DNA from: an uncultured virus (IMG/VR IMGVR_UViG_3300036940_000262)
Taxonomy: Duplodnaviria; Heunggongvirae; Uroviricota; Caudoviricetes
Reading direction: 5' to 3' (one strand)
DNA: 57,661 nt
IMG/VR virus record: IMGVR_UViG_3300036940_000262
The position numbers and the translations under genes were made by a program. Positions 3,909 through 50,897 of the stretch are shown one piece after another (position 1 is the stretch's first letter; every line of letters begins with the position of its first letter). The notes beneath the pieces were generated by a model. It worked only from the letters and a program-made list of their open reading frames with translations, had not been told where the DNA came from and made no database searches.

Positions 3909-4323
3909 CTACGTTGTAGGAATTACAACTTTAAAAGAAAGGTCTTTAGCTCACAAGCAGGTTTATTTGCTTCAAGAGTTAGGGGTAGAATTGGATTATG
4001 TGTTTGATCTGTTTTACGAAGGAGTTTATTCAGTAGACTTATCAGAAAGTATATTCAAATTAAAAGGGTTAGGTTTTGAGGATTTAAGAGGGAGTTGGAG
4101 TCCCGAAGTAAGAGGCGGGTACAATGAGTTATTAAAGGCAAAACCTGATACAGTCTCAAGTAAAAACTGGTTAGAGTTGTTAACTTCAATAATCTTCTTA
4201 CATAAAACTGGTTTTGATATTTATGATCCTGATTTTTTCAAAAGGTTGGGTAGACGTGCATTTATGAGGTCAGACGTCGATCGTGCGTTTGATTTAATTA
4301 AGCAGGTGGGTTTATGTCACTAA
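3895..4323 (+). CDS. YwgA / Panacea (DUF4065)-like winged-helix protein
   Basis: R..AHKQVYLLQELG...F....GVYS.DL and WLELLTS resemble the QK.vY.lq..G...GPYS and LELLAS motifs. Confidence 0.4.
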   Translation: MELDNYVVGITTLKERSLAHKQVYLLQELGVELDYVFDLFYEGVYSVDLSESIFKLKGLGFEDLRGSWSPEVRGGYNELLKAKPDTVSSKNWLELLTSIIFLHKTGFDIYDPDFFKRLGRRAFMRSDVDRAFDLIKQVGLCH

Positions 4324-5552
4324 TACAAAGCATTGAACTTCATAACTACGAATCTTTTAGGGATGCTAAATTTGTCTTTGATGAAACAAATATCTTAAAC
4401 ATAAAAGGATTCAATGATTCAGGGAAATCGGCTGTTTTAAGAGCGGTTGGGATTTGTTTAATGGATTTGTTTAAAATGAAGCAATCGGAGTTCATCAAGC
4501 ATGGTTGTGATTATTTCAGAATAGTGGTTACATTTGATGATGGGGTATCAATTCTCAGAGACAAGTATAAGAACGGTCAGTCATTATATGAAATGTACCT
4601 AAACGATGAACTTCAATTCACTACAAAACAAGGTGACAGATTGTCAAAAGTTACCGGAGTTCCAGACTTGATTGCAAACTATTTAAACTTGTGTGTGACA
4701 GAGGATGTTTACTTAAATTATCAAGGTAGTCGAGATCCATTGCCTGTGGTAGATTTCTCAGGCAGTAAAAACTATAGAATGTTTCATGAGGTGTTTAGAG
4801 TTACAGAGATAACAAGAGCAACTCAAATGATAAACACTGATAGAAACGAGCTAAACTCTGATATCTCTATCTTAGAAAACAACCTACACAAGTATGAGGT
4901 CTTGTTAGAACCTGTAAAAGAGGTAACACAAGAGTTAGTTGATGCGATTAGAGAGCTTGAAACAGAATCCAATCTCTTAGAGAAAAAGAAATTAGGGGTT
5001 GAGGAATGTGTAACGGCGTTAAACAACATTGTTGCGATTAAGGAAAATCCTTATATTAAAGAAGTGAGTAGAGGGCAATTAAAGAACATTGATCGATGCT
5101 ATTCTGCTGTTAATATGTTAGGGAGTATCAAAATTCATCCTGAGATCTCAGGGGTAGACGAACGTAGACTTAAAGGTATCCATGAGGTTTCCAATGTGTT
5201 TACAAACTTAAAAAGCATTGAGATTCAGCCTTCATTAGATGGGGTAGATAACAGTAGATTAAAAGCCTTAAGTAATATAATGTCGTCAATTGACCAGATT
5301 AAAAGTCTGGAAGTACCTGTAGAAGTTGGTAAAGTATCTTATAGTAAGTTAAGTGCATTAAGCACTGTAAAGGTAGACTTATCTATGGTTCTTGAGTTAA
5401 GTCAGAGTATAAACAATATTGACGATGAGTTAACAAGTTGTAAAAAAGAGTTAGAAGGGTTGGAAAAAAGCTTAGATAGTACAGGCGGAAAATATATTAA
5501 ATGTACGAACTGCGGTACTATACTAGAGGTAGGTGAAGTGTGTGGACATTAA
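4314..5552 (+). CDS. Rad50/SbcC-like ATPase, N-terminal half
   Basis: IELHNYESF start, Walker A GFNDSGKS, coiled coil and terminal CTNC zinc hook. No Walker B in this ORF. Confidence 0.8.
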   Translation: MSLIQSIELHNYESFRDAKFVFDETNILNIKGFNDSGKSAVLRAVGICLMDLFKMKQSEFIKHGCDYFRIVVTFDDGVSILRDKYKNGQSLYEMYLNDELQFTTKQGDRLSKVTGVPDLIANYLNLCVTEDVYLNYQGSRDPLPVVDFSGSKNYRMFHEVFRVTEITRATQMINTDRNELNSDISILENNLHKYEVLLEPVKEVTQELVDAIRELETESNLLEKKKLGVEECVTALNNIVAIKENPYIKEVSRGQLKNIDRCYSAVNMLGSIKIHPEISGVDERRLKGIHEVSNVFTNLKSIEIQPSLDGVDNSRLKALSNIMSSIDQIKSLEVPVEVGKVSYSKLSALSTVKVDLSMVLELSQSINNIDDELTSCKKELEGLEKSLDSTGGKYIKCTNCGTILEVGEVCGH

Positions 5553-10433: not shown

Positions 10434-11279
10434 TTGGGTTTTCTGGTAAAAAATGAAAGTGATTTAAGAGCTGGCCAAAATCAAGGAATTTTAGATAAAC
10501 CGCTTATAGAGGTTTACAACAAAAATTTATCACCATTAAGGTCTGTATTAAAGCTTAAATATGGTGGTTTTTATAAAGATGACTTCTATATAAATGTAGA
10601 AAAACGGTTTTCAAAGTTGTATGCTTACACAGGGGGTTTATATGAGGAGTGTGTTGTTCTTGCAAAATCAGGTGCTGTAGATGGCAAACTGTCAAATGAT
10701 TCAGAGTTGGTAAGTGTTTTTGAAAAAGTGGTAAAAAACTTTGAGGTTAACTCAACATATCATTTTAACAATCTTCCACAAACAACAGGCTACTTCAAGA
10801 AAAAGAAAACATTATTGGGTTGTAGCACAGAGTTTTTCTTGTACAAAGACTCAACCTATAATGTGATACTTAGGGGTAGTGAAGATACAGATGTAAAAGT
10901 AAATAAAGAATACTGTCGAAATATGGGGTACGATTACGATATCGTAGAGAGGTATATTGAGAAAGGTTACTCAAGAGAAGGGGTGTACAACTACTTAGCG
11001 TATCTTAAAACAGGGTTGTTTGTCTGTGAGGGCAAAACCTATAAATCTATTGAGATTGCCTGTAATGACTTGAAAGTACCGTATGGGGCTATTGTTAGTA
11101 TCATTTTAACGAGAGAGTGTGATTTATGGGATGCTGTAGAATATTATCAATGGATGGAAGACAACAAAGATTATTTGGAAGTCTGCAGCACAGGTCTTTT
11201 AGAAACAAAAGGAAAAGAAGCCAGAATGATTCATAAAAGTATTAAACGAGATGATGATGTCGGTTGGGAGGAATTGTAG
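10434..11279 (+). CDS. hypothetical protein with C-terminal HTH-like repeats
   Basis: FVCEGKTYKSIEIACNDLKV resembles the repeats in 16925..17959. Confidence 0.5.
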   Translation: MGFLVKNESDLRAGQNQGILDKPLIEVYNKNLSPLRSVLKLKYGGFYKDDFYINVEKRFSKLYAYTGGLYEECVVLAKSGAVDGKLSNDSELVSVFEKVVKNFEVNSTYHFNNLPQTTGYFKKKKTLLGCSTEFFLYKDSTYNVILRGSEDTDVKVNKEYCRNMGYDYDIVERYIEKGYSREGVYNYLAYLKTGLFVCEGKTYKSIEIACNDLKVPYGAIVSIILTRECDLWDAVEYYQWMEDNKDYLEVCSTGLLETKGKEARMIHKSIKRDDDVGWEEL

Positions 11280-11431
11280 CACTAAGTCTTTTTGTTAAGT
11301 GCTATAATTACAAGTAAAAAGTAGAGAGAAGGTTTTAAAATGACGGGTGTTTTAAAAACAGCAACAATAGGTATGTGTACAATTGGTCTGTATTGGTTAT
11401 TGTTATTAGAGTTGTTCTTTTAGGAGGTTTT

Positions 11432-11611
11432 ATGTCAATACTGTTTTCAATTACAATTATCTTTGTAGCGGTGGTCAGTTTGATATCTTTTGCATTGTCT
11501 ATCCTGTTTGCTCCTGTAAAATGGGTGATTAAGAAGCTAACACCTTTAGTCATTGCAATTGGTACAGGCTTCATTATATACTGGTATTTTTCAGGAGCAG
11601 TGATGTTTTAA
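11432..11611 (+). CDS. small membrane protein
   Basis: AGGAGG RBS before the MSILFS start; hydrophobic. Confidence 0.5.
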   Translation: MSILFSITIIFVAVVSLISFALSILFAPVKWVIKKLTPLVIAIGTGFIIYWYFSGAVMF

Positions 11612-11746
11612 AGAAGAAGGGGGTAGGATTTTTATGTCTTACAATTTTATAGGTGGAGATTTTGTTTGCAACGGAGATTTCGTTCCTGACATCAATCAAC
11701 AGAGAGATATGCAGGAAAGAATGGACAATTATTAAGAGATTAAGGG

Positions 11747-12115
11747 GTGGAAATGATAGAAACTATGGTCTTTACAATTATTGCAGGATTGTTAACAGTC
11801 ATACCTGCTGACAAGCACAGAAAGTTTTTTGCAGAGAAAGGGATTCTTTTTTCCCATATATTCTTTACGATTGTACTGACAAGGTGTTTAGCAATCGGAT
11901 TGGCACTAGCCTTTGCAGGGGTATATCTTGCAAAACTGTTTTTTACGGTAACGACTCTTGCAGGTATTTGGTTAGGAGTGGCTTTATTTGTAGTAGGGTT
12001 ATTTCTGGGGTACAGACTACCGGTGGCAAAATTCGGTGATCCGTCAAAAGTGACTTATAAAGACTTGAAAGAACAACATACACCTAGAAAAAGAATGTTT
12101 AAGAAACGTAAATAA
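11747..12115 (+). CDS. membrane protein
   Basis: Three hydrophobic segments and a basic tail. Confidence 0.55.
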   Translation: MEMIETMVFTIIAGLLTVIPADKHRKFFAEKGILFSHIFFTIVLTRCLAIGLALAFAGVYLAKLFFTVTTLAGIWLGVALFVVGLFLGYRLPVAKFGDPSKVTYKDLKEQHTPRKRMFKKRK

Positions 12116-12123
12116 ACAGTTTA

Positions 12124-12161
12124 AAACTAGGTAAAAAGAGATATATTGATTGTGGTATAAT
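12124..12161 (+). promoter_or_regulatory. element-specific promoter of the TnpB-CRISPR locus
   Basis: AAACTAGGTA (GGTA at 12130-12133), then 22 nt, then extended -10 TG-G-TATAAT at 12156-12161. Confidence 0.65.
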
Positions 12162-12191
12162 AATGCTAGAGTTAGAGAGGAGGTGAGAAAA

Positions 12192-13421
12192 ATAGAGACA
12201 GTATACAGAATTGAGAAACATATTATTAAAAAGAAGCATCCGCATTTTGCTATGTTGGAGGATTACTGCCATAGAGCAAAGAATCTTTACAACAAGACAA
12301 ACTACGAAATCCGACAAGAGTTTACTAAAAGTGGTAAGGTTTTAAGTCAATTCACTTTAAATAAGTATATGAAAACAGGTGAAAGAGAGGAAGTGTATCG
12401 TGCTATGCCATCGGCTAGAAGTGCTAATGGTACAATAGAGTTGGTGTCTAATGCATGGGTATCCTTTATAAAGGCAAGAAAAGACTACTTTAAGCATCCT
12501 GAGAAGTATAAGAGGTGTCCACGCATACCTGGTTTCTTAGAGAAAGACGGTATGCACATTTTAAACTTAACAAAAGATAGTTGTACACTCAAAGAGGGGT
12601 ACATTTGCTTTCCAAAAGTCTTTGAGGGTTTAAAGTTAAAAACGAATATTACATCAAAACCACAGGTGGTTAGGATTTTACCGAGAAATAAACACTTTGT
12701 TGTAGAGGTTGTTTATAAGATTGAAGTACCTGACAAAGTAGAGGATAACGGACGTTATTTCAGTATTGATATTGGTTTAGATAACTTGGCAACTGTTACA
12801 TCAAATACAGGTATGAGACCTGTAATCATTAACGGTAAAGGTCTAAAGTCAATCAACAAATACTACAATAAACAACTTGCTTATTACAAAAGCATAGCGA
12901 AACAGATGAACGGTGTATTCTCAACAAATAATTTAAATAAGCTTTCCTATAAAAGAAACAACAAGATAAAAGACTATTTACACAAGGCAAGTAAATATAT
13001 TATTGATCTAGCAGTTGAAAACAACATATCGACAATTGTTGTAGGAAACAATAAGGGGTGGAAACAGGAGTCAAAACTATCTAAAAAAGTTAATCAGACT
13101 TTTGTAGGGTTACCGCATCAAATATTTATAGATATGTTAACTTATAAAGGAGAGGATGTAGGAATATCCGTAATTACAACAGAAGAGTCCTACACATCTG
13201 GTACTAGCTTCTTAGACAATGAAGAACCTGTAAAAGAAAACTATAACAAAAAGAGAAGAAAGCATCGAGGGTTATTTATCAGCAACGAAGGGGTAAAAAT
13301 CAATGCAGATGTGAACGCTTCTTATCAAATACTTAAAAAAGTATTCCCTAAAGCGTATGTAGAGTATGGAGAAGGGATAGAGGGTGTGGTGTTACATCCA
13401 ATTGTAGTAAACGCCGCTTAA
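12192..13421 (+). CDS. tnpB: CRISPR-adjacent TnpB-family RNA-guided nuclease (candidate compact Cas12-like effector), ~409 aa
   Basis: N-terminal RIEKHII..KNLYN..NY.IRQ, RuvC-I SIDIGLDNLA, RuvC-II IVVGNNKGWKQ with alternative Glu in TEESYTS, RuvC-III NADVNAS. No zinc finger and no transposase nearby. Start inferred from RBS GGAGGT at 12179-12184; the track's TTG at 12150 lies inside the promoter. Confidence 0.9.
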   Translation: METVYRIEKHIIKKKHPHFAMLEDYCHRAKNLYNKTNYEIRQEFTKSGKVLSQFTLNKYMKTGEREEVYRAMPSARSANGTIELVSNAWVSFIKARKDYFKHPEKYKRCPRIPGFLEKDGMHILNLTKDSCTLKEGYICFPKVFEGLKLKTNITSKPQVVRILPRNKHFVVEVVYKIEVPDKVEDNGRYFSIDIGLDNLATVTSNTGMRPVIINGKGLKSINKYYNKQLAYYKSIAKQMNGVFSTNNLNKLSYKRNNKIKDYLHKASKYIIDLAVENNISTIVVGNNKGWKQESKLSKKVNQTFVGLPHQIFIDMLTYKGEDVGISVITTEESYTSGTSFLDNEEPVKENYNKKRRKHRGLFISNEGVKINADVNASYQILKKVFPKAYVEYGEGIEGVVLHPIVVNAA

Positions 13422-13456
13422 GCGGTGTTGAACAATAAATTCTTTGACAATTTAAG
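13382..13456 (+). ncRNA. putative tracrRNA / omegaRNA 5' scaffold overlapping the tnpB 3' end
   Basis: Hairpin at 13382-13399 with loop GTGT, 20-nt palindrome at 13410-13429 over the stop codon, and anti-repeat ATTCTTTGACAA at 13439-13450. The 5' boundary is uncertain. Confidence 0.55.
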
Positions 13457-13800
13457 GTTGAAGTTCGTCAATGTTTGTCAGGGGAATGACACAGGTGTAA
13501 TTCCAATACGCTCTCTTTCAGCGTTGAAGTTCGTCAATGTTTGTCAGGGGAATGACACCCACATACAAAATTGACCTGACAAGACTTAGTTGAAGTTCGT
13601 CAATGTTTGTCAGGGGAATGACACTAATCGTACCCTCTGTATACGATTCATAAGGTTGAAGTTCGTCAATGTTTGTCAGGGGAATGACACTTGATGTTTC
13701 TACGTATAATGGCAGTAATCGTTGAAGTTCGTCAATGTTTGTCAGGGGAATGACACTATCTACAGTGTGGATTAGATTAGGTACTAGTTGAAGTTCGTCA
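13457..13800 (+). CRISPR. CRISPR array: five identical 36-bp repeats, one truncated terminal repeat, five 30-bp spacers
   Basis: Repeat GTTGAAGTTCGTCAATGTTTGTCAGGGGAATGACAC at 13457, 13523, 13589, 13655 and 13721; 14-bp remnant at 13787-13800. All spacers are unique. Confidence 0.97.
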
Positions 13801-13853
13801 GTTAGACGGTTTATATTTGTTAAATTGAACAAAATTAGAAAGAGGTAAATAGT

Positions 13854-14561
13854 TTGAGTAAAGAACGAGTAGTTGTAAAAACAAGGTCAGTAACAGAGCG
13901 GTCTTATGTACATTTCTTTAAAGATATGTTTGATAATATGTGCAGTTTTGCTTGTGCTGATGATGGTAGATTGCTGGATGCTGAGGATGAGGAAGAGTAT
14001 ACAAAGTGTTTAGACGATAGTAAAGTATCTTACAAAGGGGTAAAAAAATATACTACTATGAGAGAGGGGATGGATATTCTGTGCCTAGAGTGCGGTGAGG
14101 TTGTGAGTATCAATATGAATTCATCATCATCAACTACTTTCACTTGCAGTCATTGTGGTAAAGGTTACGACAATAAAGGTTATAGTGTAGACGACAGAAT
14201 TTTCAGTGAGGTTGTAGAGGTGGAATTAACAAGAGAAGACAAATGTAAATTGGCATTATATGTGTCATTGAGAACTAATTTTGTACTTAAGGAACATATA
14301 AATGAAGCGTTACCTTTATATGGTGAAGAAGTAAATAAGGAAGCCTATAAAGTTTTTCAAGATAGGGTAGACCCTAGGATACCTTATGAAACACAACTGC
14401 TTAACTTTATAAAATCCTCTCAGGTGGAGCCTGTTGGTAGAAGGTTAGGTAAAACTGAAGAGAAGATTGATAAGATGACAAAAGATGTTTTAGAGGTTGT
14501 TTTACAGTCTGTAGACTATGAGGCAGTAGCGAAATCTTTTCAAGACGGGCAAGAGGGGTAG
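13854..14561 (+). CDS. hypothetical protein with zinc ribbon
   Basis: CLECG and CSHCG pair; GAGG RBS. Confidence 0.55.
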   Translation: MSKERVVVKTRSVTERSYVHFFKDMFDNMCSFACADDGRLLDAEDEEEYTKCLDDSKVSYKGVKKYTTMREGMDILCLECGEVVSINMNSSSSTTFTCSHCGKGYDNKGYSVDDRIFSEVVEVELTREDKCKLALYVSLRTNFVLKEHINEALPLYGEEVNKEAYKVFQDRVDPRIPYETQLLNFIKSSQVEPVGRRLGKTEEKIDKMTKDVLEVVLQSVDYEAVAKSFQDGQEG

Positions 14562-14566
14562 AGTTC

Positions 14567-15004
14567 ATGACAACATTAACCTATGCATTAATTGTTGTTG
14601 GAGTAGTCTTTGCAATTGTAGGGGTTGTTATGCTATTCTCATGCATTGCTGAAGGTGTGGCTAAAGGTGTGTTTATATTTGGTCTTGGAGTAATATTGCT
14701 GATTGTGACTTTATTTTTACCAACCTCTACTGACTTATCTATAGATACTTCAAGTTGGTTAAGTGAAACATACACTTGTTATGAAACTCAAGAAACTTTA
14801 ATGTTATTCCAACATGATAATACTTACCACGTATATAATGAAGTGAACTACACGTCAGATGATGGTATCTACACAAAGATAGACGATAACATAATAAGAT
14901 TCAAAAGAGGTTCTGTTGAGTATGAAGCTGTTTACGAGGAGAGCGACGATAATCTAACTGTAGAGAACTTAGATACAGGTCAGAAATACAAGTTTGAGGG
15001 GTAG
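14567..15004 (+). CDS. membrane-anchored protein
   Basis: Two N-terminal TM segments and a small beta-rich domain; similar layout to 56870..57337. Confidence 0.55.
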   Translation: MTTLTYALIVVGVVFAIVGVVMLFSCIAEGVAKGVFIFGLGVILLIVTLFLPTSTDLSIDTSSWLSETYTCYETQETLMLFQHDNTYHVYNEVNYTSDDGIYTKIDDNIIRFKRGSVEYEAVYEESDDNLTVENLDTGQKYKFEG

Positions 15005-15037
15005 TATTCAGGTAGAGTAAACAAAGGGCTTAAAATC

Positions 15038-15059
15038 GACTGCTTATGCAGTCTTTTTT
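15038..15059 (+). terminator. intrinsic terminator
   Basis: GACTGC-TTAT-GCAGTC followed by TTTTTT. Confidence 0.7.
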
Positions 15060-15144
15060 ATTGTCAAAAAAGGGTAATTTATTTTCATTTTTGTAGATAG
15101 AATTTTCAATATATGCTATTATCAGAGAATAGGGGTTAAGGGGT

Positions 15145-16923
15145 ATGAACGGGGTAGATGTAAAAATCTTTGAGGAAATATTAGAGAACGGTAGTAGGCT
15201 ACCAAGGATTCCTTTAAATTCAGAAGAAGGTTGTTTTAAAAATTCTGGAATAGAGGATTTTGTAAGTAAGCAAACAAAAGCAAGTAAATACTCATCAAAA
15301 AAGAGTGCTAAGAAACAGACTAGAAAGAGAGGTATTGTTTTAGTACCAAGCACTAAAACAGACAGTATTGAGAGTGAGGCAGAGGAAGAGATTAAGAAAC
15401 TATTAGAGTTTGAGGGTGGTGAGGTTTTGCCACCATACTCAATAATGTTTACAGCACACTTTGCTAAAAACAAGAACTTGTATACTTTAATAGACTGCGA
15501 GTATGAGAAGCATAAGAACGTGGTTGTGGGGTTAATAGAGTCATCATCTTTAAAGGATGAGGACATCCTTCACAGGGGTACACCGCAGTATGAATTGATG
15601 GCTAGGAAAGTATTAGGTTTACTGTTATACAATCTTGACTACTATGTAAACTTATTTTTTAGTAGAGAGAATCCTAAACTACAGAAGTATATAACAAATA
15701 GTGAGCATTATAAAGAGGGTAATGTATTCTCAAAAGTTGGGATGTCTAGGAAAGATTTTTCAATAGAGAACATTATTTATTGTTATTATATGTTCAAAGA
15801 GAACAAGGAGGCTAAGAGAAAAGCCAACTCAGAACTTTTAAAAGGCTTTACTAACTACATGGGATCGATGTTAGAAGGGTTTTATAAGGACGGTTTAGTG
15901 TATGATTCTGATATTTCTATGGATGGTGTAGACGAGTTTTGGGAAAGGTATACAGAAGAAACAGGTGTATCAAGAGACTTTACAGATATTGCTGATTTTG
16001 TAAAGAAGCATAAAGACACTACTATGTATGATAAAGTGTTCAATTCGAGTATAAAAAAGATTTTAGACAATTCAGGGGTAGGTTTCTTAACAGTTGATGT
16101 TGAGGTGTCTTTAGAGGACATAAACTTAGTAACTAGCATCTATCTATCATATAATGAAGGAGTTCTAGGGTTTGTTGAGTTCTTTGTTGAGAAGTGTTTT
16201 ATGTTAAAAGTTGCTAAATCTTATACTGATCTAAAAAAGACGTATTTAAATGAAAATTCAGATTACTTGAAAGATAAGGTAGGTGCTTTAGAGTTTGAAA
16301 ATCAGAGGTTAATCAAGGATTTGTCTAGTATTGAGAATAAACATACTAAAGAAATTTCTGATAAAAACAGTATAATAAAGAGACTATCAGGGGTAGAAAA
16401 GAAGCTAAAACAAGAATATGAATCAAAGGTTTCTAAACTTCATAAAGAGTATAAAGCGGAGATTGCAAAGCTTAAATCGGGTTATGAGAAAACAATTAAA
16501 GAAAACGAAAAGAAGATAGAGTCTTTGTCATTAAGTAAGAGTAGACTTAAAGGCGAGATTAGAGACTTGCAGATGAAGTTTATCGGGGATGAAGAGGACT
16601 CCAAAATGACGATGGATGAAGCCATCGCTGTCATTAGTAGTTTCAACAGAATACTTTATGTAGCAGACTTAGACTTTGGTATGCCTAGATTGAAAGTTCT
16701 AAAGGAAAAACTGCCAATGGTGGACTTCTATGATGGTACTTTCCCTTCAAAAGCGGATATTGTATTCACTGACATCGGTTTAATGCATCATAGTTTATTC
16801 TGGAAAACAGAGAACTACTATAGTTCTCTAGACACACCAATACACTTAATAAAGTCATCAGGTTTAGAGAGTAAGTTAGTAGAAATGGCTACAAGTTTAA
16901 AAGAGTTAGAAAGGTTAGGTTAG
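15145..16923 (+). CDS. coiled-coil protein with C-terminal DUF2325-like domain
   Basis: Long heptad region followed by ADIVFTDIGLMHH. Confidence 0.5.
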   Translation: MNGVDVKIFEEILENGSRLPRIPLNSEEGCFKNSGIEDFVSKQTKASKYSSKKSAKKQTRKRGIVLVPSTKTDSIESEAEEEIKKLLEFEGGEVLPPYSIMFTAHFAKNKNLYTLIDCEYEKHKNVVVGLIESSSLKDEDILHRGTPQYELMARKVLGLLLYNLDYYVNLFFSRENPKLQKYITNSEHYKEGNVFSKVGMSRKDFSIENIIYCYYMFKENKEAKRKANSELLKGFTNYMGSMLEGFYKDGLVYDSDISMDGVDEFWERYTEETGVSRDFTDIADFVKKHKDTTMYDKVFNSSIKKILDNSGVGFLTVDVEVSLEDINLVTSIYLSYNEGVLGFVEFFVEKCFMLKVAKSYTDLKKTYLNENSDYLKDKVGALEFENQRLIKDLSSIENKHTKEISDKNSIIKRLSGVEKKLKQEYESKVSKLHKEYKAEIAKLKSGYEKTIKENEKKIESLSLSKSRLKGEIRDLQMKFIGDEEDSKMTMDEAIAVISSFNRILYVADLDFGMPRLKVLKEKLPMVDFYDGTFPSKADIVFTDIGLMHHSLFWKTENYYSSLDTPIHLIKSSGLESKLVEMATSLKELERLG

Positions 16924-18021: not shown

Positions 18022-18987
18022 ATGAAAAAAGTTAAGTATGTGGAATTAGACGACAGTTATGCGAAGTTAGAGGAATTAAGACGGATGCATAGTGATTCGG
18101 GTGGGTGTTTGAGAGTTGATTTAGAGGACTATATCAACAGATTAGAGTTTGGTCAGTTAGGTGAGAATGAGGTTAAAGAGGAGTTGTTGGGGTTGGGTAT
18201 CCCTGCAACTTTGATATCAGGATTGAATCTTTCTTATGAAACTTCTAATGCTCAGATAGACTTTGTTTTAGTGACATCTAAGATTGTTTACTTTATCGAA
18301 TGTAAGTCTATGGTCGGTGATATCGGTGTATCTGAAAATGGTGAATTTAAAAGGTATATGTCAAACGGCGATAAATATGTAGGTGAGGATTTTCCTTCAC
18401 CTGTAAATCAAAACAGAAAACATATTACTGTACTAGACAGAATCCTAGAGGATGGGGGTATTGCTAAAAGTAAGGCTCTAGAAGGTCTAGTTGTTAAATC
18501 ATTAGTAGTATTTACAAACAAGAGAACAAACCTATTAATCAAAGACAGCCCTAATCATGTTAAAAATGTCCTAGTAAAAACATATCATCTTAAAAACAGA
18601 ATCGAGAAAGAGGTAGGAAGGGGTAGAACAGGACTTGGAAAAATAAACAACATTGTTGAAGGTTTAAAGCGGTTACATAACTGTCAGACAAAGGATTATG
18701 TTAAAGAGTATATCGACAGATATGAGTATGAGAAGCGTATTAAGATGCTTAAAAAACAAAGAAAAACCTTCAGTGATTTAAAGATAGCTTTAGAAAGATA
18801 CAGAGAGGAAAAAAGTAAAACAGATGGTATACAACCATATTTTATTCTTTCAGAGGAGCAGATCAACAACTTGTTGGATGTGAGACCGACTTCTGTATCA
18901 GAGTTAAAGGCTGTAAAAGGGTTTAATAAGAATAAAATCAGTAAGTTTGGTAAAGATATTATACTGGTTGTTTCAGAGAATATATGA
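18022..18987 (+). CDS. NERD nuclease-like domain plus HRDC domain protein
   Basis: GQLGE, QIDFVLV, IECKS, SPVNQN; C-terminal LERYR..PYFIL...P.S..EL..VKGF. Confidence 0.8.
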   Translation: MKKVKYVELDDSYAKLEELRRMHSDSGGCLRVDLEDYINRLEFGQLGENEVKEELLGLGIPATLISGLNLSYETSNAQIDFVLVTSKIVYFIECKSMVGDIGVSENGEFKRYMSNGDKYVGEDFPSPVNQNRKHITVLDRILEDGGIAKSKALEGLVVKSLVVFTNKRTNLLIKDSPNHVKNVLVKTYHLKNRIEKEVGRGRTGLGKINNIVEGLKRLHNCQTKDYVKEYIDRYEYEKRIKMLKKQRKTFSDLKIALERYREEKSKTDGIQPYFILSEEQINNLLDVRPTSVSELKAVKGFNKNKISKFGKDIILVVSENI

Positions 18988-46298: not shown

Positions 46299-46649
46299 GT
46301 TGTAAAATATAGGCGGAAAGTGATTAATGAAGAAATCTCAAATAATCTAAGAGAGATATTTGAGAGAATCCAACCAAAATATAACATCACACTGCAAGAG
46401 TGGAATCATGATAAAGACCATATCCACGTATTATTCAAAGGAAATCCAAACACAGAAATTTCAAAATTCATCAATGCTTACAAATCAGCAAGCAGCCGAT
46501 TGATTAAAAAAGAATATCCTCAAATCAGAAAACAACTCTGGAAGGAATACTTTTGGTCAAGAAGTTTCTGTTTGATAACATCAGGTGGAGCACCAATTGA
46601 AGTTATTAAAAAATACATTGAACAGCAAGGAGGACGAAAGAATGAATAA
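46299..46649 (+). pseudogene. tnpA: 5'-truncated Y1 (HUH) transposase TnpA
   Basis: VVKYRRKV, DHIH and KYIEQQ are present. An in-frame TAA at 46287 removes the usual N-terminal ~20 aa, and there is no good RBS. Confidence 0.75.
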
Positions 46650-47736
46650 AGCTTATAAATTCAGATTATATCCAAATCAAGAACAAGAAATCATGTTCGC
46701 AAAAACATTTGGATGCACACGATTCATTTACAATCAAATGCTTGGTGATAAAATCAAGCATTATGAAGAACACAAAGAAAAATTAAACAACACACCAGCT
46801 CAATACAAAGCTAAATTTGAATGGCTTAAAGAAGTTGATTCTCTCGCCCTCGCAAATGCTCAAATGAATTTGCAAACAGCATATAATAACTTCTTCCGTT
46901 CTCCAAAAGTTGGCTTTCCAAAATTCAAGTCAAAACATAAAAATCGAAATGCTTACACGACAAACAACCAGGGTGGCAATATCCGCATTGAAGATAGACA
47001 TATTAAACTTCCTAAAATCGGCTTTGTTAAAATCAAACAGCATCGTGAAATTCCAGAAGAACAAATCATCAAATCATGCACCATCTCAAAAACTCCTTCT
47101 GGAAAATATTTTGTAAGCATTTTGGTTGAATATGAATTTGAACAGCCTGAATTTGAAGTTGATCTTGAAAACATCTTCGGTCTTGATATGGATATGAAAA
47201 ATTTGTTCACGGATAGCAACGGTAATCGTGCTGACTATCCACACTATTATAGACAATCACTTGATAAACTTGCAAGAGAAAGCCGCAAATTGTCAAAATG
47301 TAAAAAAGGAAGTAACAACCGAAACAAGCAACGGATTAAAGTGACAAAGATCCATGAAAAAATTGCAAATCAACGTAAAGATTTCTTACATAAACTATCT
47401 TATCAGATAACCAATGAATATGATGGCGTGTGTATTGAAGACTTAAACATGAGAGCAATGGGTCAATGCTTAAATCTTGGCAAAAGCGTTGCCGACAACG
47501 GCTGGGGAATGTTCACAAATTTCCTTCTCTACAAACTTTTTGATCAAGGAAAACCGTTAATCAAAGTTGACAAATGGTTCCCAAGCTCAAAAATGTGTCA
47601 TTGCTGCGGATTGATCAACGAAAATCTCACCTTGTCTGACAGAGAATGGACGTGTGAGTGTGGTGAACACCACGACAGAGACTGGAACGCAGCAATTAAT
47701 ATCAAGCGTGAAGGAACAAGAATCCTAACAGCATAA
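46642..47736 (+). CDS. tnpB: canonical IS605 TnpB
   Basis: MNKAYKFRLYP start, GLDMD, CIEDL, CHCC..CECG zinc finger and DRDWNAA; AGGAGG RBS. Confidence 0.95.
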   Translation: MNKAYKFRLYPNQEQEIMFAKTFGCTRFIYNQMLGDKIKHYEEHKEKLNNTPAQYKAKFEWLKEVDSLALANAQMNLQTAYNNFFRSPKVGFPKFKSKHKNRNAYTTNNQGGNIRIEDRHIKLPKIGFVKIKQHREIPEEQIIKSCTISKTPSGKYFVSILVEYEFEQPEFEVDLENIFGLDMDMKNLFTDSNGNRADYPHYYRQSLDKLARESRKLSKCKKGSNNRNKQRIKVTKIHEKIANQRKDFLHKLSYQITNEYDGVCIEDLNMRAMGQCLNLGKSVADNGWGMFTNFLLYKLFDQGKPLIKVDKWFPSSKMCHCCGLINENLTLSDREWTCECGEHHDRDWNAAINIKREGTRILTA

Positions 47737-49940: not shown

Positions 49941-50897
49941 ATGCGTAAAGTAAGTGAACCTTTAATATTAAAGGAGAGCAGTACATTAGACACTCAATTA
50001 AGGTCATTAGAAAACATGAGGGGTTATGTTTCTAATGATAGTGCCTCATTCCTAGAAAACGATATTAAGTTAATGAGCTTTGGTAGTGTTGGCGAGAAGT
50101 CCTTAATGTATGAACTAAAGTCATCTGATATGCCAATCTGTGTTATTAGAGACTTACATCTAAAACATGGTGACCTAACTGCTCAAATTGACTTTGTTGT
50201 AATCACAAGGGGTACTATATACTTATTAGAATGTAAGAACTTGAGTGGAAACATTGAAGTAAGGCATAATGGAGAGTTTATCCGTAAGTATAAATACGAT
50301 GGTAGAACTGTAACAGAGAGCCTGTATTCACCTATAACTCAAAATGCACGTCATCTTAGTATCTTTAAAAAATGTTTGAGTAAGAAACTATCTTTGAAAG
50401 ATAGATTATTTAACAGGTATAAGATAAAACCTTTAGTAGTGCTGGCAAACTCTAGAAGTGTTCTTAATACATTAGAAACGACCAAGTCTTTAATGAATCA
50501 AATCACTAAGATAGACTTAATTAATAAGAGGATTTCAGAGGGTTCTAAGTACAAACCTGAACTATCTAGAAGTCAGTTTAAGAAGGTTAAGAGGATGTCA
50601 TTAAAGGTACTGAGTATGCATGACTTGATTAGCACAGACATATCAAGCAAATACAAGAGGTACTCAAAAGATAAAGAAACTCAACTATTTGATGAGTTAA
50701 GAGCTTATCGAGCAAAGAAAACTAAAGAGGAACAAACAAAAGCGTATTACATCTTCACAAACAGAGAATTAGAGGATGTAGTATCTAATAAACCAAGAAC
50801 AGTTGATGATTTGAAAACTATTTATGGCTTTGGTAGTAAGAAGATTGAAGCCTATGGAGACGATATTATTTCAATTGTTTCAGGTGTTTGCGGTTAG
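49941..50897 (+). CDS. NERD plus HRDC domain protein (paralogue of 18022..18987)
   Basis: GSVGE, AQIDFVVI, LECKN, SPITQN; HRDC LRAYR...AYYIFTN.EL. Confidence 0.85.
   Translation: MRKVSEPLILKESSTLDTQLRSLENMRGYVSNDSASFLENDIKLMSFGSVGEKSLMYELKSSDMPICVIRDLHLKHGDLTAQIDFVVITRGTIYLLECKNLSGNIEVRHNGEFIRKYKYDGRTVTESLYSPITQNARHLSIFKKCLSKKLSLKDRLFNRYKIKPLVVLANSRSVLNTLETTKSLMNQITKIDLINKRISEGSKYKPELSRSQFKKVKRMSLKVLSMHDLISTDISSKYKRYSKDKETQLFDELRAYRAKKTKEEQTKAYYIFTNRELEDVVSNKPRTVDDLKTIYGFGSKKIEAYGDDIISIVSGVCG

Follow-up and report, generated by a model that had tools for sequence, protein, structure and literature searches.

A gene for an RNA-guided nuclease of the TnpB family and a short CRISPR-like array lie side by side in a 57,661-nt stretch of DNA from an uncultured virus of the Caudoviricetes (IMG/VR record IMGVR_UViG_3300036940_000262), the whole of which is called the window here. 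Comparison with relatives of the gene indicates that the last 36 bases of the TnpB guide-RNA (omegaRNA) scaffold have been copied into this five-spacer array. We read the locus as a domesticated TnpB with a CRISPR-like array of the TranC kind, carried on a large mobile element, and assign this reading a probability of roughly 0.72. The argument leans on the following parts, all on the + strand, which is the strand of all large open reading frames (ORFs) of the window.

12153..12161, + strand: extended -10-like box TGGTATAAT, candidate promoter of the whole unit, as read from the sequence
12183..13421, + strand: tnpB, TnpB-family RNA-guided nuclease of ~412 aa, by profiles, conserved residues and predicted fold
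13374..13492, + strand: 3' portion of the omegaRNA scaffold, from the last codons of tnpB through the intergenic DNA to repeat 1, as delimited by covariance model R1
13382..13399, + strand: hairpin P1 (GGGUGU / ACAUCC, 5-7 bp), in the codons for G-V-V-L-H-P
13389..13394, + strand: 5' strand of the pseudoknot, GUGUUA (P1 loop plus A13394), pairing with 13487-13492 (UGACAC)
13401..13436, + strand: hairpin P2a/P2 spanning the stop codon (13401-13405 with 13432-13436; 13410-13417 with 13422-13429)
13439..13450, + strand: anti-repeat, the 5' arm of the family's terminal stem P3, right after the conserved TTGAACAATAAA as in relatives
13457..13492, + strand: repeat 1, with apical mini-hairpin (13457-13472), P3 3' arm (13475-13487) and pseudoknot tail UGACAC (13487-13492)
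13493..13522, + strand: spacer 1, guide of the cis omegaRNA, with an exact 30-nt protospacer match
13523, 13589, 13655 and 13721 (first bases), + strand: repeats 2-5, identical to repeat 1
13559-13588, 13625-13654, 13691-13720 and 13757-13786, + strand: spacers 2-5
13787..13819, + strand: degenerate sixth repeat, its first 14 nt kept, followed by a terminator-like hairpin (13795-13809) and a T-rich tail

A TnpB gene and a regular array

The array starts 36 nt after the tnpB stop codon, which puts a TnpB-lineage effector beside a CRISPR array, the arrangement by which TranC systems are recognized. Its five 36-nt repeats, the first at 13457, are identical and share the 3' end ACAC, and the spacers are all 30 nt long and all different. 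Every one of the five copies that precede a spacer is thus unchanged, and the sole copy with no spacer behind it is the decayed sixth, whose terminator-like hairpin has a weak stem (5 bp, including three G-C pairs). Neither IMG/VR nor the metagenome contigs contained the repeat's 3' 21-mer. None of the 52 ORFs of at least 100 aa scanned in the 57.7-kb window belongs to a Cas family (the element extends past the window), and cas1 and cas2, the adaptation genes of type V CRISPR-Cas loci, were not among them.

The tnpB product falls within the NCBIfam family NF040570 (guided_TnpB; 181.3 bits, cut-off 100), and matches Pfam PF01385 (OrfB_IS605, 78.8 bits) and PF07282 (Cas12f1-like TNB, 35.3 bits). 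The Cas12f2 model NF049972 gives 54.4 bits against a cut-off of 450, which leaves the protein outside this curated Cas12 subtype. Residues D207, E345/E346 and D387 (P0001 numbering) are invariant in 28 homologues, and their contexts (DIGLDN, TEESYTS and NADVNAS) lead us to read them as the putative RuvC acidic triad. In the AlphaFold2 model (mean predicted local distance difference test score, pLDDT, 78.8), the closest folds found by Foldseek were AsCas12f (8j3r, E 4e-16, and 8j12), ISDra2 TnpB (8h1j, target-normalized TM-score, TMt, 0.73) and ISFba1 TnpB, with LaTranC (9jfq) at rank 39; phmmer of the window protein against PDB sequences returned nothing at E <= 0.01. The zinc-ribbon region (13190-13300, about residues 347-385 in P0001 numbering) has no cysteine in the window protein or in 27 aligned homologues, and carries invariant Ser and Thr in place of the CxxC...CxxC usual in TnpB and Cas12f.

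The open frame spans 12150-13421 (+ strand, 423 codons) from a first codon TTG at 12150, and the start within it is uncertain: GTG 12183 is the gene caller's start in a 97% identical homologue, and the relatives' ATG aligns to ATA 12192. A GGAGG immediately abuts GTG 12183. The box TGGTATAAT upstream was missed by a promoter consensus scan because it has no -35 hexamer.

A complete omegaRNA ending with repeat 1

The protein search returned 6695 proteins at E <= 0.001 among 8000 scored candidates. The best 120 of these 6695 include one protein 97% identical to that of the window (on a 58.8-kb contig) and 119 at 54-59% identity, with lengths of 401-422 aa; apart from the 97% one, these best-listed relatives are ordinary TnpBs, relative to which the window protein has gained no domain. 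From viral, genome and metagenome collections, 171 loci were fetched (given L numbers where needed), and the named genome records among them are metagenome-assembled genomes or scaffolds labelled Ruminococcus, Lachnospiraceae, Lachnobacterium, Clostridium and Clostridia. In several loci (e.g., L014) tnpB is preceded by a gene for a Resolvase+MerR protein, an IS607-type serine TnpA. The window gene has none: no tnpA was found beside it, and the upstream ORF (11747-12115) has no Pfam match; the locus does not have the make-up of an active IS607/IS605 transposon.

On the 3' side of tnpB the relatives share one plan, in which a stop-codon hairpin is followed by TTGA(A/C)(C/T)AA(T/C)AAA, a long AT-rich stem-loop, an ATAACNT-type tail and then the guide, in the form of unrelated flanking DNA. 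The window follows this plan: its TTGAACAATAAA is identical to that of L008, L115 and others, and the P3 3' arm and tail (AAUGACAC) fall inside repeat 1. To offset our own choice of tail ends in the alignment described below (A2), a covariance model, R1, was built from the nested helices of the relatives only, without pseudoknot information, and run on all loci. In the window it gives a single match, at 13374-13492 (95 bits, E 5e-17, full model length), which ends at the last base of repeat 1. By this measure, 13374-13492 reads as one complete omegaRNA of a large clostridial TnpB family, and the match, together with the helix and pseudoknot covariation given below, indicates that the 3' end of tnpB carries an omegaRNA immediately followed by the guide. 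A preliminary description of the locus, made from the letters alone, had proposed that repeat 1 and spacer 1 complete a single-molecule omegaRNA in cis, and the position of the sole R1 match bears this out. Searching Rfam at E <= 1 over 11000-15500 recovered no guide-RNA family, RAGATH-18 included.

The same description had pointed to a hairpin, GGGTGTG/TACATCC (13382-13399), with a loop GTGT complementary to the repeat end ACAC, and to a 20-nt palindrome (13410-13429) covering the stop codon (13419-13421). Both structures are present in the minimum free energy (MFE) folds of the region, and both held up among the relatives. P1 is paired in 98-99% of alignment cells, and L020 and L057 have double changes (U-A to C-G, G-C to A-U) that go with replacements in the protein (V to I, H to C); two-sided changes are found at all five pairs of P2a and at seven of the eight pairs of P2, the 8-bp stop-codon hairpin, and covariation backs the pairing of loop and tail as well (see below).

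The conserved nucleotides GGGATAGAGGGTGT (window 13377-13399; A2 columns 1-27) are translated in different frames in two branches of the family, as G-I-E-G-V in one and as W-D-R-G-C in the other, and the two are brought back into register by a 1-nt difference in the loop of the hairpin. Constraint at this site appears to act more on the RNA than on the protein.

A pseudoknot between the P1 loop and the repeat end

Alignment A2 consists of the window and 37 loci. Tail ends were picked by the motif AT[AG][AG]CN[TC], which leaves the covarying position free and matched 48 of the 72 distinct loci examined; 11 of these 48 were dropped as duplicated, mis-picked or of other architecture (L001, L005, L017, L032, L041, L073, L084, L093, L095, L131 and L154). 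All six pseudoknot pairs are formed in every sequence of A2 (100%, 37 distinct sequences). The second pair (13390:13491) is G-C in 14, U-A in 13, C-G in 9 and G-U in 1, and the fourth (13392:13489) is U-A in 34 and C-G in 2. Taken as a whole, the structure is 95.5% paired vs. 82.9% in shuffles (0 of 500 reaching the observed value), and sliding the partners by 1-3 columns lowers its pairing to 35-51%. The covariation can also be followed in the gene, where the codon before the conserved Leu-His-Pro changes with the tail across relatives:

GGG-TTA codons: tail UAACCU (relatives)
GCG-TTA codons: tail UAACGU (relatives)
GTG-TTA codons: tail UAACAU (relatives)
GTG-CTA codons: tail UAGCAU (L008, L118)
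GTG-TTA codons: tail UGACAC (window)

In a second alignment, made by R1 (A3, 52 rows), the pseudoknot is 93.5% paired, pair 13390:13491 is G-C in 13 rows, U-A in 13, C-G in 11, G-U in 3 and other in 4, and all six pairs are formed in 35 of the 47 rows that have a tail. With the partner slid by 1-3 columns, pairing over the whole structure falls to 29-54%. The non-seed rows of A3 (n = 23) form six of six pairs in 12 cases, five in another five and at most four in the remaining six, of which five are distant matches of at most 58 bits and one (L068) looks misaligned. In a further model-made alignment, six pairs were formed in 4 of 18 non-seed rows, including a new combination (AUGUCA:UGACAU), and most of the other rows are weak, distant matches. 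Double changes directly back pairs 2 and 4, and pair 5 in one sequence only.

On the basis of this covariation, and not of energy, we consider the loop-to-tail pseudoknot directly 5' of the guide to be real. Covariation of loop and repeat end in homologues, which the preliminary description had named as a check, was thus found (G-C, U-A and C-G at one pair); its pseudoknot stands through these compensatory changes, and its extent has to be revised, to probably 5-6 nt rather than the 4-nt loop alone. The pairing can extend to 6 bp, which would open the top of the P1 hairpin. Its geometry matches that of ISDra2, for which positions -5..-3 are described as pairing with -103..-105 (PMC10097598), the corresponding positions in the window being -6..-1 and -104..-99.

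The repeat as the end of an omegaRNA

As had been noted from the letters, the anti-repeat ATTCTTTGACAA (13439-13450) pairs with the repeat, G-U pairs included: with 13475-13487 of repeat 1 it forms 12 bp (9 Watson-Crick, 3 G-U, A13480 bulged), and the helix is present in the MFE fold of every stretch tried (13200, 13250, 13300, 13330 or 13360 to 13492). By energy, this complementarity is not statistically unusual. RNAduplex gives -12.6 kcal/mol for the intergenic 35-mer with the repeat, where dinucleotide shuffles average -11.0 (standard deviation 2.9) and 522 of 2000 are as low, and 26% of 11431 35-mers from the rest of the window match the repeat equally well. Since the anti-repeat energy is at chance level, the case must rest on comparison with relatives, in position and covariation. 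P3 arms across the family average -6.0 kcal/mol with their cognate partner vs. -2.4 with non-cognate ones; those of the window, at -11.6 kcal/mol, are the most stable of 38, and none of 37 foreign arms pairs as well with either window arm. As an argument for linkage, the anti-repeat thus keeps its force through its position and its cognate-arm pairing, and loses it as far as energy is concerned.

In alignment with L008, L031 and L115, the mini-hairpin formed by the first 16 nt of the repeat falls on the apical hairpin of their P3 stem. Aligned in this way, the repeat consists of the apical hairpin, the P3 3' arm and the pseudoknot tail of an omegaRNA, with the cut point on the 5' side of the apical hairpin; the repeat corresponds to the omegaRNA end and the anti-repeat to the P3 5' arm, as in the TranC arrangement. 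When scaffold and free repeat are cofolded, the anti-repeat duplex is formed at -36.7 kcal/mol, vs. -29.3 kcal/mol for the two monomers.

A scan of 168 relative loci for arrays found repeated omegaRNA ends beside the gene in L001/L098 (one contig) only; the matches in L017, L032, L136 and L144 are small, and either far from the gene or two-copy. In L001 (positions 4286-4535 of an IMG/VR contig; TnpB 52% identical), the 53-nt omegaRNA terminal hairpin plus tail occurs in three copies, spaced by 7 and 84 nt; in the first, a mutation of the tail disrupts one pair of the pseudoknot, and the second and third are intact. By its layout, L001 is a right-end duplication and not a regular array.

Targets and relatives in metagenomes

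Contigs of four public runs were compared with 12100-14600. Two of these runs (X1 and X2) contain the element of the window without differences, and also sequences matched by its spacers. All 30 nt of spacer 1 recur exactly on a 616-nt contig of X2, in unrelated flanks that are also given by loose ends in X1, and all 30 nt of spacer 4 recur exactly on a 260-nt contig of X1; both contigs are foreign. In guide sense, the 5' flanks end in ...AGTTGTAA (spacer 1 target) and ...ATATTGTAT (spacer 4 target), both with TTGTA at -6..-2, which makes TTGTA a candidate target-adjacent motif (TAM) resting on two flanks. The transposon left end of the window element was examined in one alignment with relatives, and the left-end flanks of L014, L107, L019 and L099 (…AAATAT, …AATGAT, …AAAGAT and …AAATGG), where the boundary is uncertain, gave no clear motif. 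A 37-nt match of the whole array in a blastn search against phages (E = 5) was treated as noise, and megablast of 11000-16000 against the phage collection gave no match.

A third run (X3) contains the 97% relative. Its similarity to the window runs from 12142, just upstream of the TGGTATAAT box, to a contig end at 13492, with no difference listed after 12968 (the final 47 nt, up to 13492, do not allow a judgement). A second X3 contig covers 13727-13992 and then jumps to 14656 of the window; the gap over spacers 1-4 is a hole between two contig ends and not evidence for a different spacer set. The jump corresponds to a 663-nt deletion (13993-14655), in which ORF 13854-14561 is mostly lost and ORF 14567-15004 loses its start. 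The X3 relative thus retains the gene-plus-array module in changed flanks.

A model for the locus and the alternatives

We propose that the locus is one transcription unit, which would run from the candidate promoter at about 12153-12161 through tnpB, the scaffold and five repeat-spacer units to the weak terminator in the decayed sixth repeat. The scaffold supplies P1, the stop-codon hairpin P2 and the P3 5' arm, and each repeat the mini-hairpin, the P3 3' arm and the 6-nt tail. Repeat 1 in cis gives an ordinary uncut omegaRNA with spacer 1 as its guide, as the R1 match and the covariation show at the sequence level. For repeats 2-5, the scaffold up to about 13450-13456, once freed from repeat 1, may pair in trans through the 12-bp stem and the pseudoknot, and so act as a tracrRNA (the trans-activating RNA of CRISPR systems) for spacers 2-5, in keeping with the anatomy of the locus and with TranC as published. 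Judging from the two protospacers, the loaded nuclease would go on to cleave spacer-matching DNA on the 3' side of a TTGTA-like motif, presumably that of rival mobile elements.

Several observations weigh against this proposal. On the RNA side, the anti-repeat duplex is short (12 bp with 3 G-U and 1 bulge) and its energy is not above chance; in the primary transcript the anti-repeat is engaged in cis by repeat 1, so that use in trans needs a cut or a competing molecule; and the free repeat forms a hairpin (13476-13480 with 13487-13491) that hides the pseudoknot tail. The tail ends of A2 were picked by motif and 11 of 48 motif-positive loci dropped, for which the model-made A3 was used as an offset. 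The start codon of tnpB and the spacing of its ribosome-binding site are odd. No cas1 that could account for spacer acquisition was found among the scanned ORFs. Targets were found for two of the five spacers, and TTGTA comes from two flanks; the spacers gave no convincing match in the phage collection (best E = 5), the 22-mers of spacers 1 and 4 (the two that were scanned) were absent from IMG/VR, and with as many as 6 mismatches allowed, neither the window nor the fetched loci gave a match to any spacer. There was no RNA run among those listed as containing the locus.

Part of this evidence would also suit a locus in which only scaffold, repeat 1 and spacer 1 function, as a normal omegaRNA, and units 2-5 are inert, for instance as relics of right-end recombination. 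The cis molecule is indeed complete and ordinary, repeat 1 ties up the anti-repeat, the duplex is weak for pairing in trans, the scanned ORFs include no adaptation genes, and the copies in L001, which with gaps of 7 and 84 nt cannot all be guides, indicate that right-end duplication happens without a working array. Such relics would hardly be expected, however, to keep repeats 2-5 identical over 36 nt while the spacerless repeat has decayed, to hold spacers that are all different and all exactly 30 nt, or to include a spacer 4 whose exact target shares the 5' TTGTA with the target of spacer 1, and we regard this explanation as rather unlikely, if still one to be reckoned with. Another way in which the units might work would bypass the scaffold altogether, the repeat's own 3' hairpin (UGUCA-GGGGAA-UGACA) serving as a Cas12a-like handle that loads the protein, so that the CRISPR RNAs (crRNAs) would be independent of a tracrRNA. 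This hairpin is present in the MFE structure of the free repeat, and a condensed omegaRNA has been proposed as a route to Cas12a-type arrays, as described in PMC10097598; yet the hairpin is no longer than 5 bp, folding of the entire repeat yields just -6.7 kcal/mol, and the tail that it would sequester is the very tail that covaries with the P1 loop across the family. P1 and P2 are, moreover, conserved with the family, and the protein (412 aa vs. 401-422 aa) has no extra domains to replace them, which makes this route improbable in our view.

That an unrelated CRISPR array has come to lie beside a transposon tnpB by chance would agree with the chance-level energy of the anti-repeat match. It is nevertheless hardly credible, given a repeat end that is the family's omegaRNA tail and is complementary to this gene's own codons, an R1 match that ends exactly at the repeat end, and a gene and array that stay together in the X3 relative while the flanks differ. 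The functional linkage of gene and array argued in the preliminary description is instead borne out by this R1 match, by the compensatory changes in relatives and by exact protospacers with a shared 5' motif.

Returning to a domesticated TnpB with a TranC-like array, it is tempting to speculate further on its origin. The array might be an independent and very young birth from a TnpB lineage paired with IS607-type TnpA and having an ISDra2-like omegaRNA embedded in the gene, the one protein then being served at once by a natural single guide RNA, its uncut first unit, and by dual RNAs for the later units, which would use the scaffold in trans, with growth through host machinery or through right-end duplication of the L001 type and without cas1-cas2 of its own. 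We offer this as a tentative scenario, on balance a doubtful one.

Surroundings of the locus in the window

The recognizable ORFs of the window encode a primase fragment, SbcC/SbcD-like proteins, a UvrD-type helicase, a RecJ-like exonuclease, an actin-like partition protein and two NERD-HRDC proteins, and no capsid protein or terminase was recognized among the window ORFs. We therefore take the window for a section of a large phage or plasmid devoted to replication and recombination. The two NERD-HRDC paralogues (18022-18987 and 49941-50897) are both on the element of the window. A second, unrelated IS200/IS605 element is present at 46320-47736, with a Y1 transposase gene (46320-46649) overlapping that of a TnpB (46585-47736); the latter has a helix-turn-helix domain and a TNB domain, and model R1 gives no match there.

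Relation to known systems and significance

The splitting of an omegaRNA into tracrRNA and crRNA was proposed in 2023, as set out in PMC10097598, and such a split of the right-end element RNA (reRNA) has, by published accounts, been demonstrated in TranC systems, which descend from TnpBs of IS605 and IS607 (Jin et al., Cell 2025; as reported in PMC13565253 and PMC13639567). As far as these accounts describe them, TranC systems resemble the locus of the window in having a TnpB-like effector beside a short array, no adaptation genes of their own, and a scaffold divided into a tracr-like part and a repeat. By its description (bioRxiv 10.64898/2026.03.27.714800), CauTranC9 is a phage-borne TranC from a clade with a mean length of 414 aa, 38-bp repeats, five repeats and spacers matching phages; compared on that description, the two share the TnpB size and the five repeats, CauTranC9 being on a phage, and differ in repeat length (38 bp in clade 9 vs. 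36 nt in the window). LaTranC (9jfq) appears only at fold rank 39 and was not found by sequence or profile search of the PDB. In the locus of the window, the first unit is still an uncut omegaRNA.

Among transposon nucleases, ISDra2 TnpB (IS200/IS605; 8H1J, 8EXA) is alike in an omegaRNA that overlaps the 3' end of tnpB, a guide 3' of the scaffold, a pseudoknot between the bases that immediately precede the guide and a site ~100 nt upstream, and its fold (TMt 0.73). It differs in showing no sequence-level match to the window protein and in serving one guide rather than an array; the family of the window, for its part, has no zinc-ribbon cysteines and has relatives with a serine, IS607-type TnpA. 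This last feature recalls the IS607 element ISFba1, whose TnpB (8IAZ) has a similar fold, the relatives of the window gene lying beside a Resolvase+MerR TnpA. The ISFba1 reRNA (RAGATH-18), however, has no overlap with the coding sequence, and ISFba1 has a G-rich TAM (AGGAG or GAGGG; PMC11061315), whereas the window scaffold overlaps the coding sequence, has no RAGATH-18 match in Rfam and goes with the candidate motif TTGTA. With Cas12f (type V-F) the locus shares a miniature RuvC effector, the best fold matches (8j3r and 8j12), and repeat:anti-repeat pairing plus a pseudoknot; unlike Cas12f, the window protein (14-15% identical to AsCas12f chains) has no enlarged REC or WED domains, and no cas1, cas2 or cas4 is nearby among the scanned ORFs.

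The concept of such a transition was published in 2025, and the value of the locus lies in a clean new lineage rather than in a new principle. It shows base by base where a transposon guide RNA would have been cut into a CRISPR repeat, with ordinary uncut relatives for comparison. It also offers a nuclease of ~412 aa with TTGTA as its short candidate target motif, a single-guide design found in nature and targets occurring naturally in the same samples, so that the use of guides in cis vs. in trans would be directly testable.

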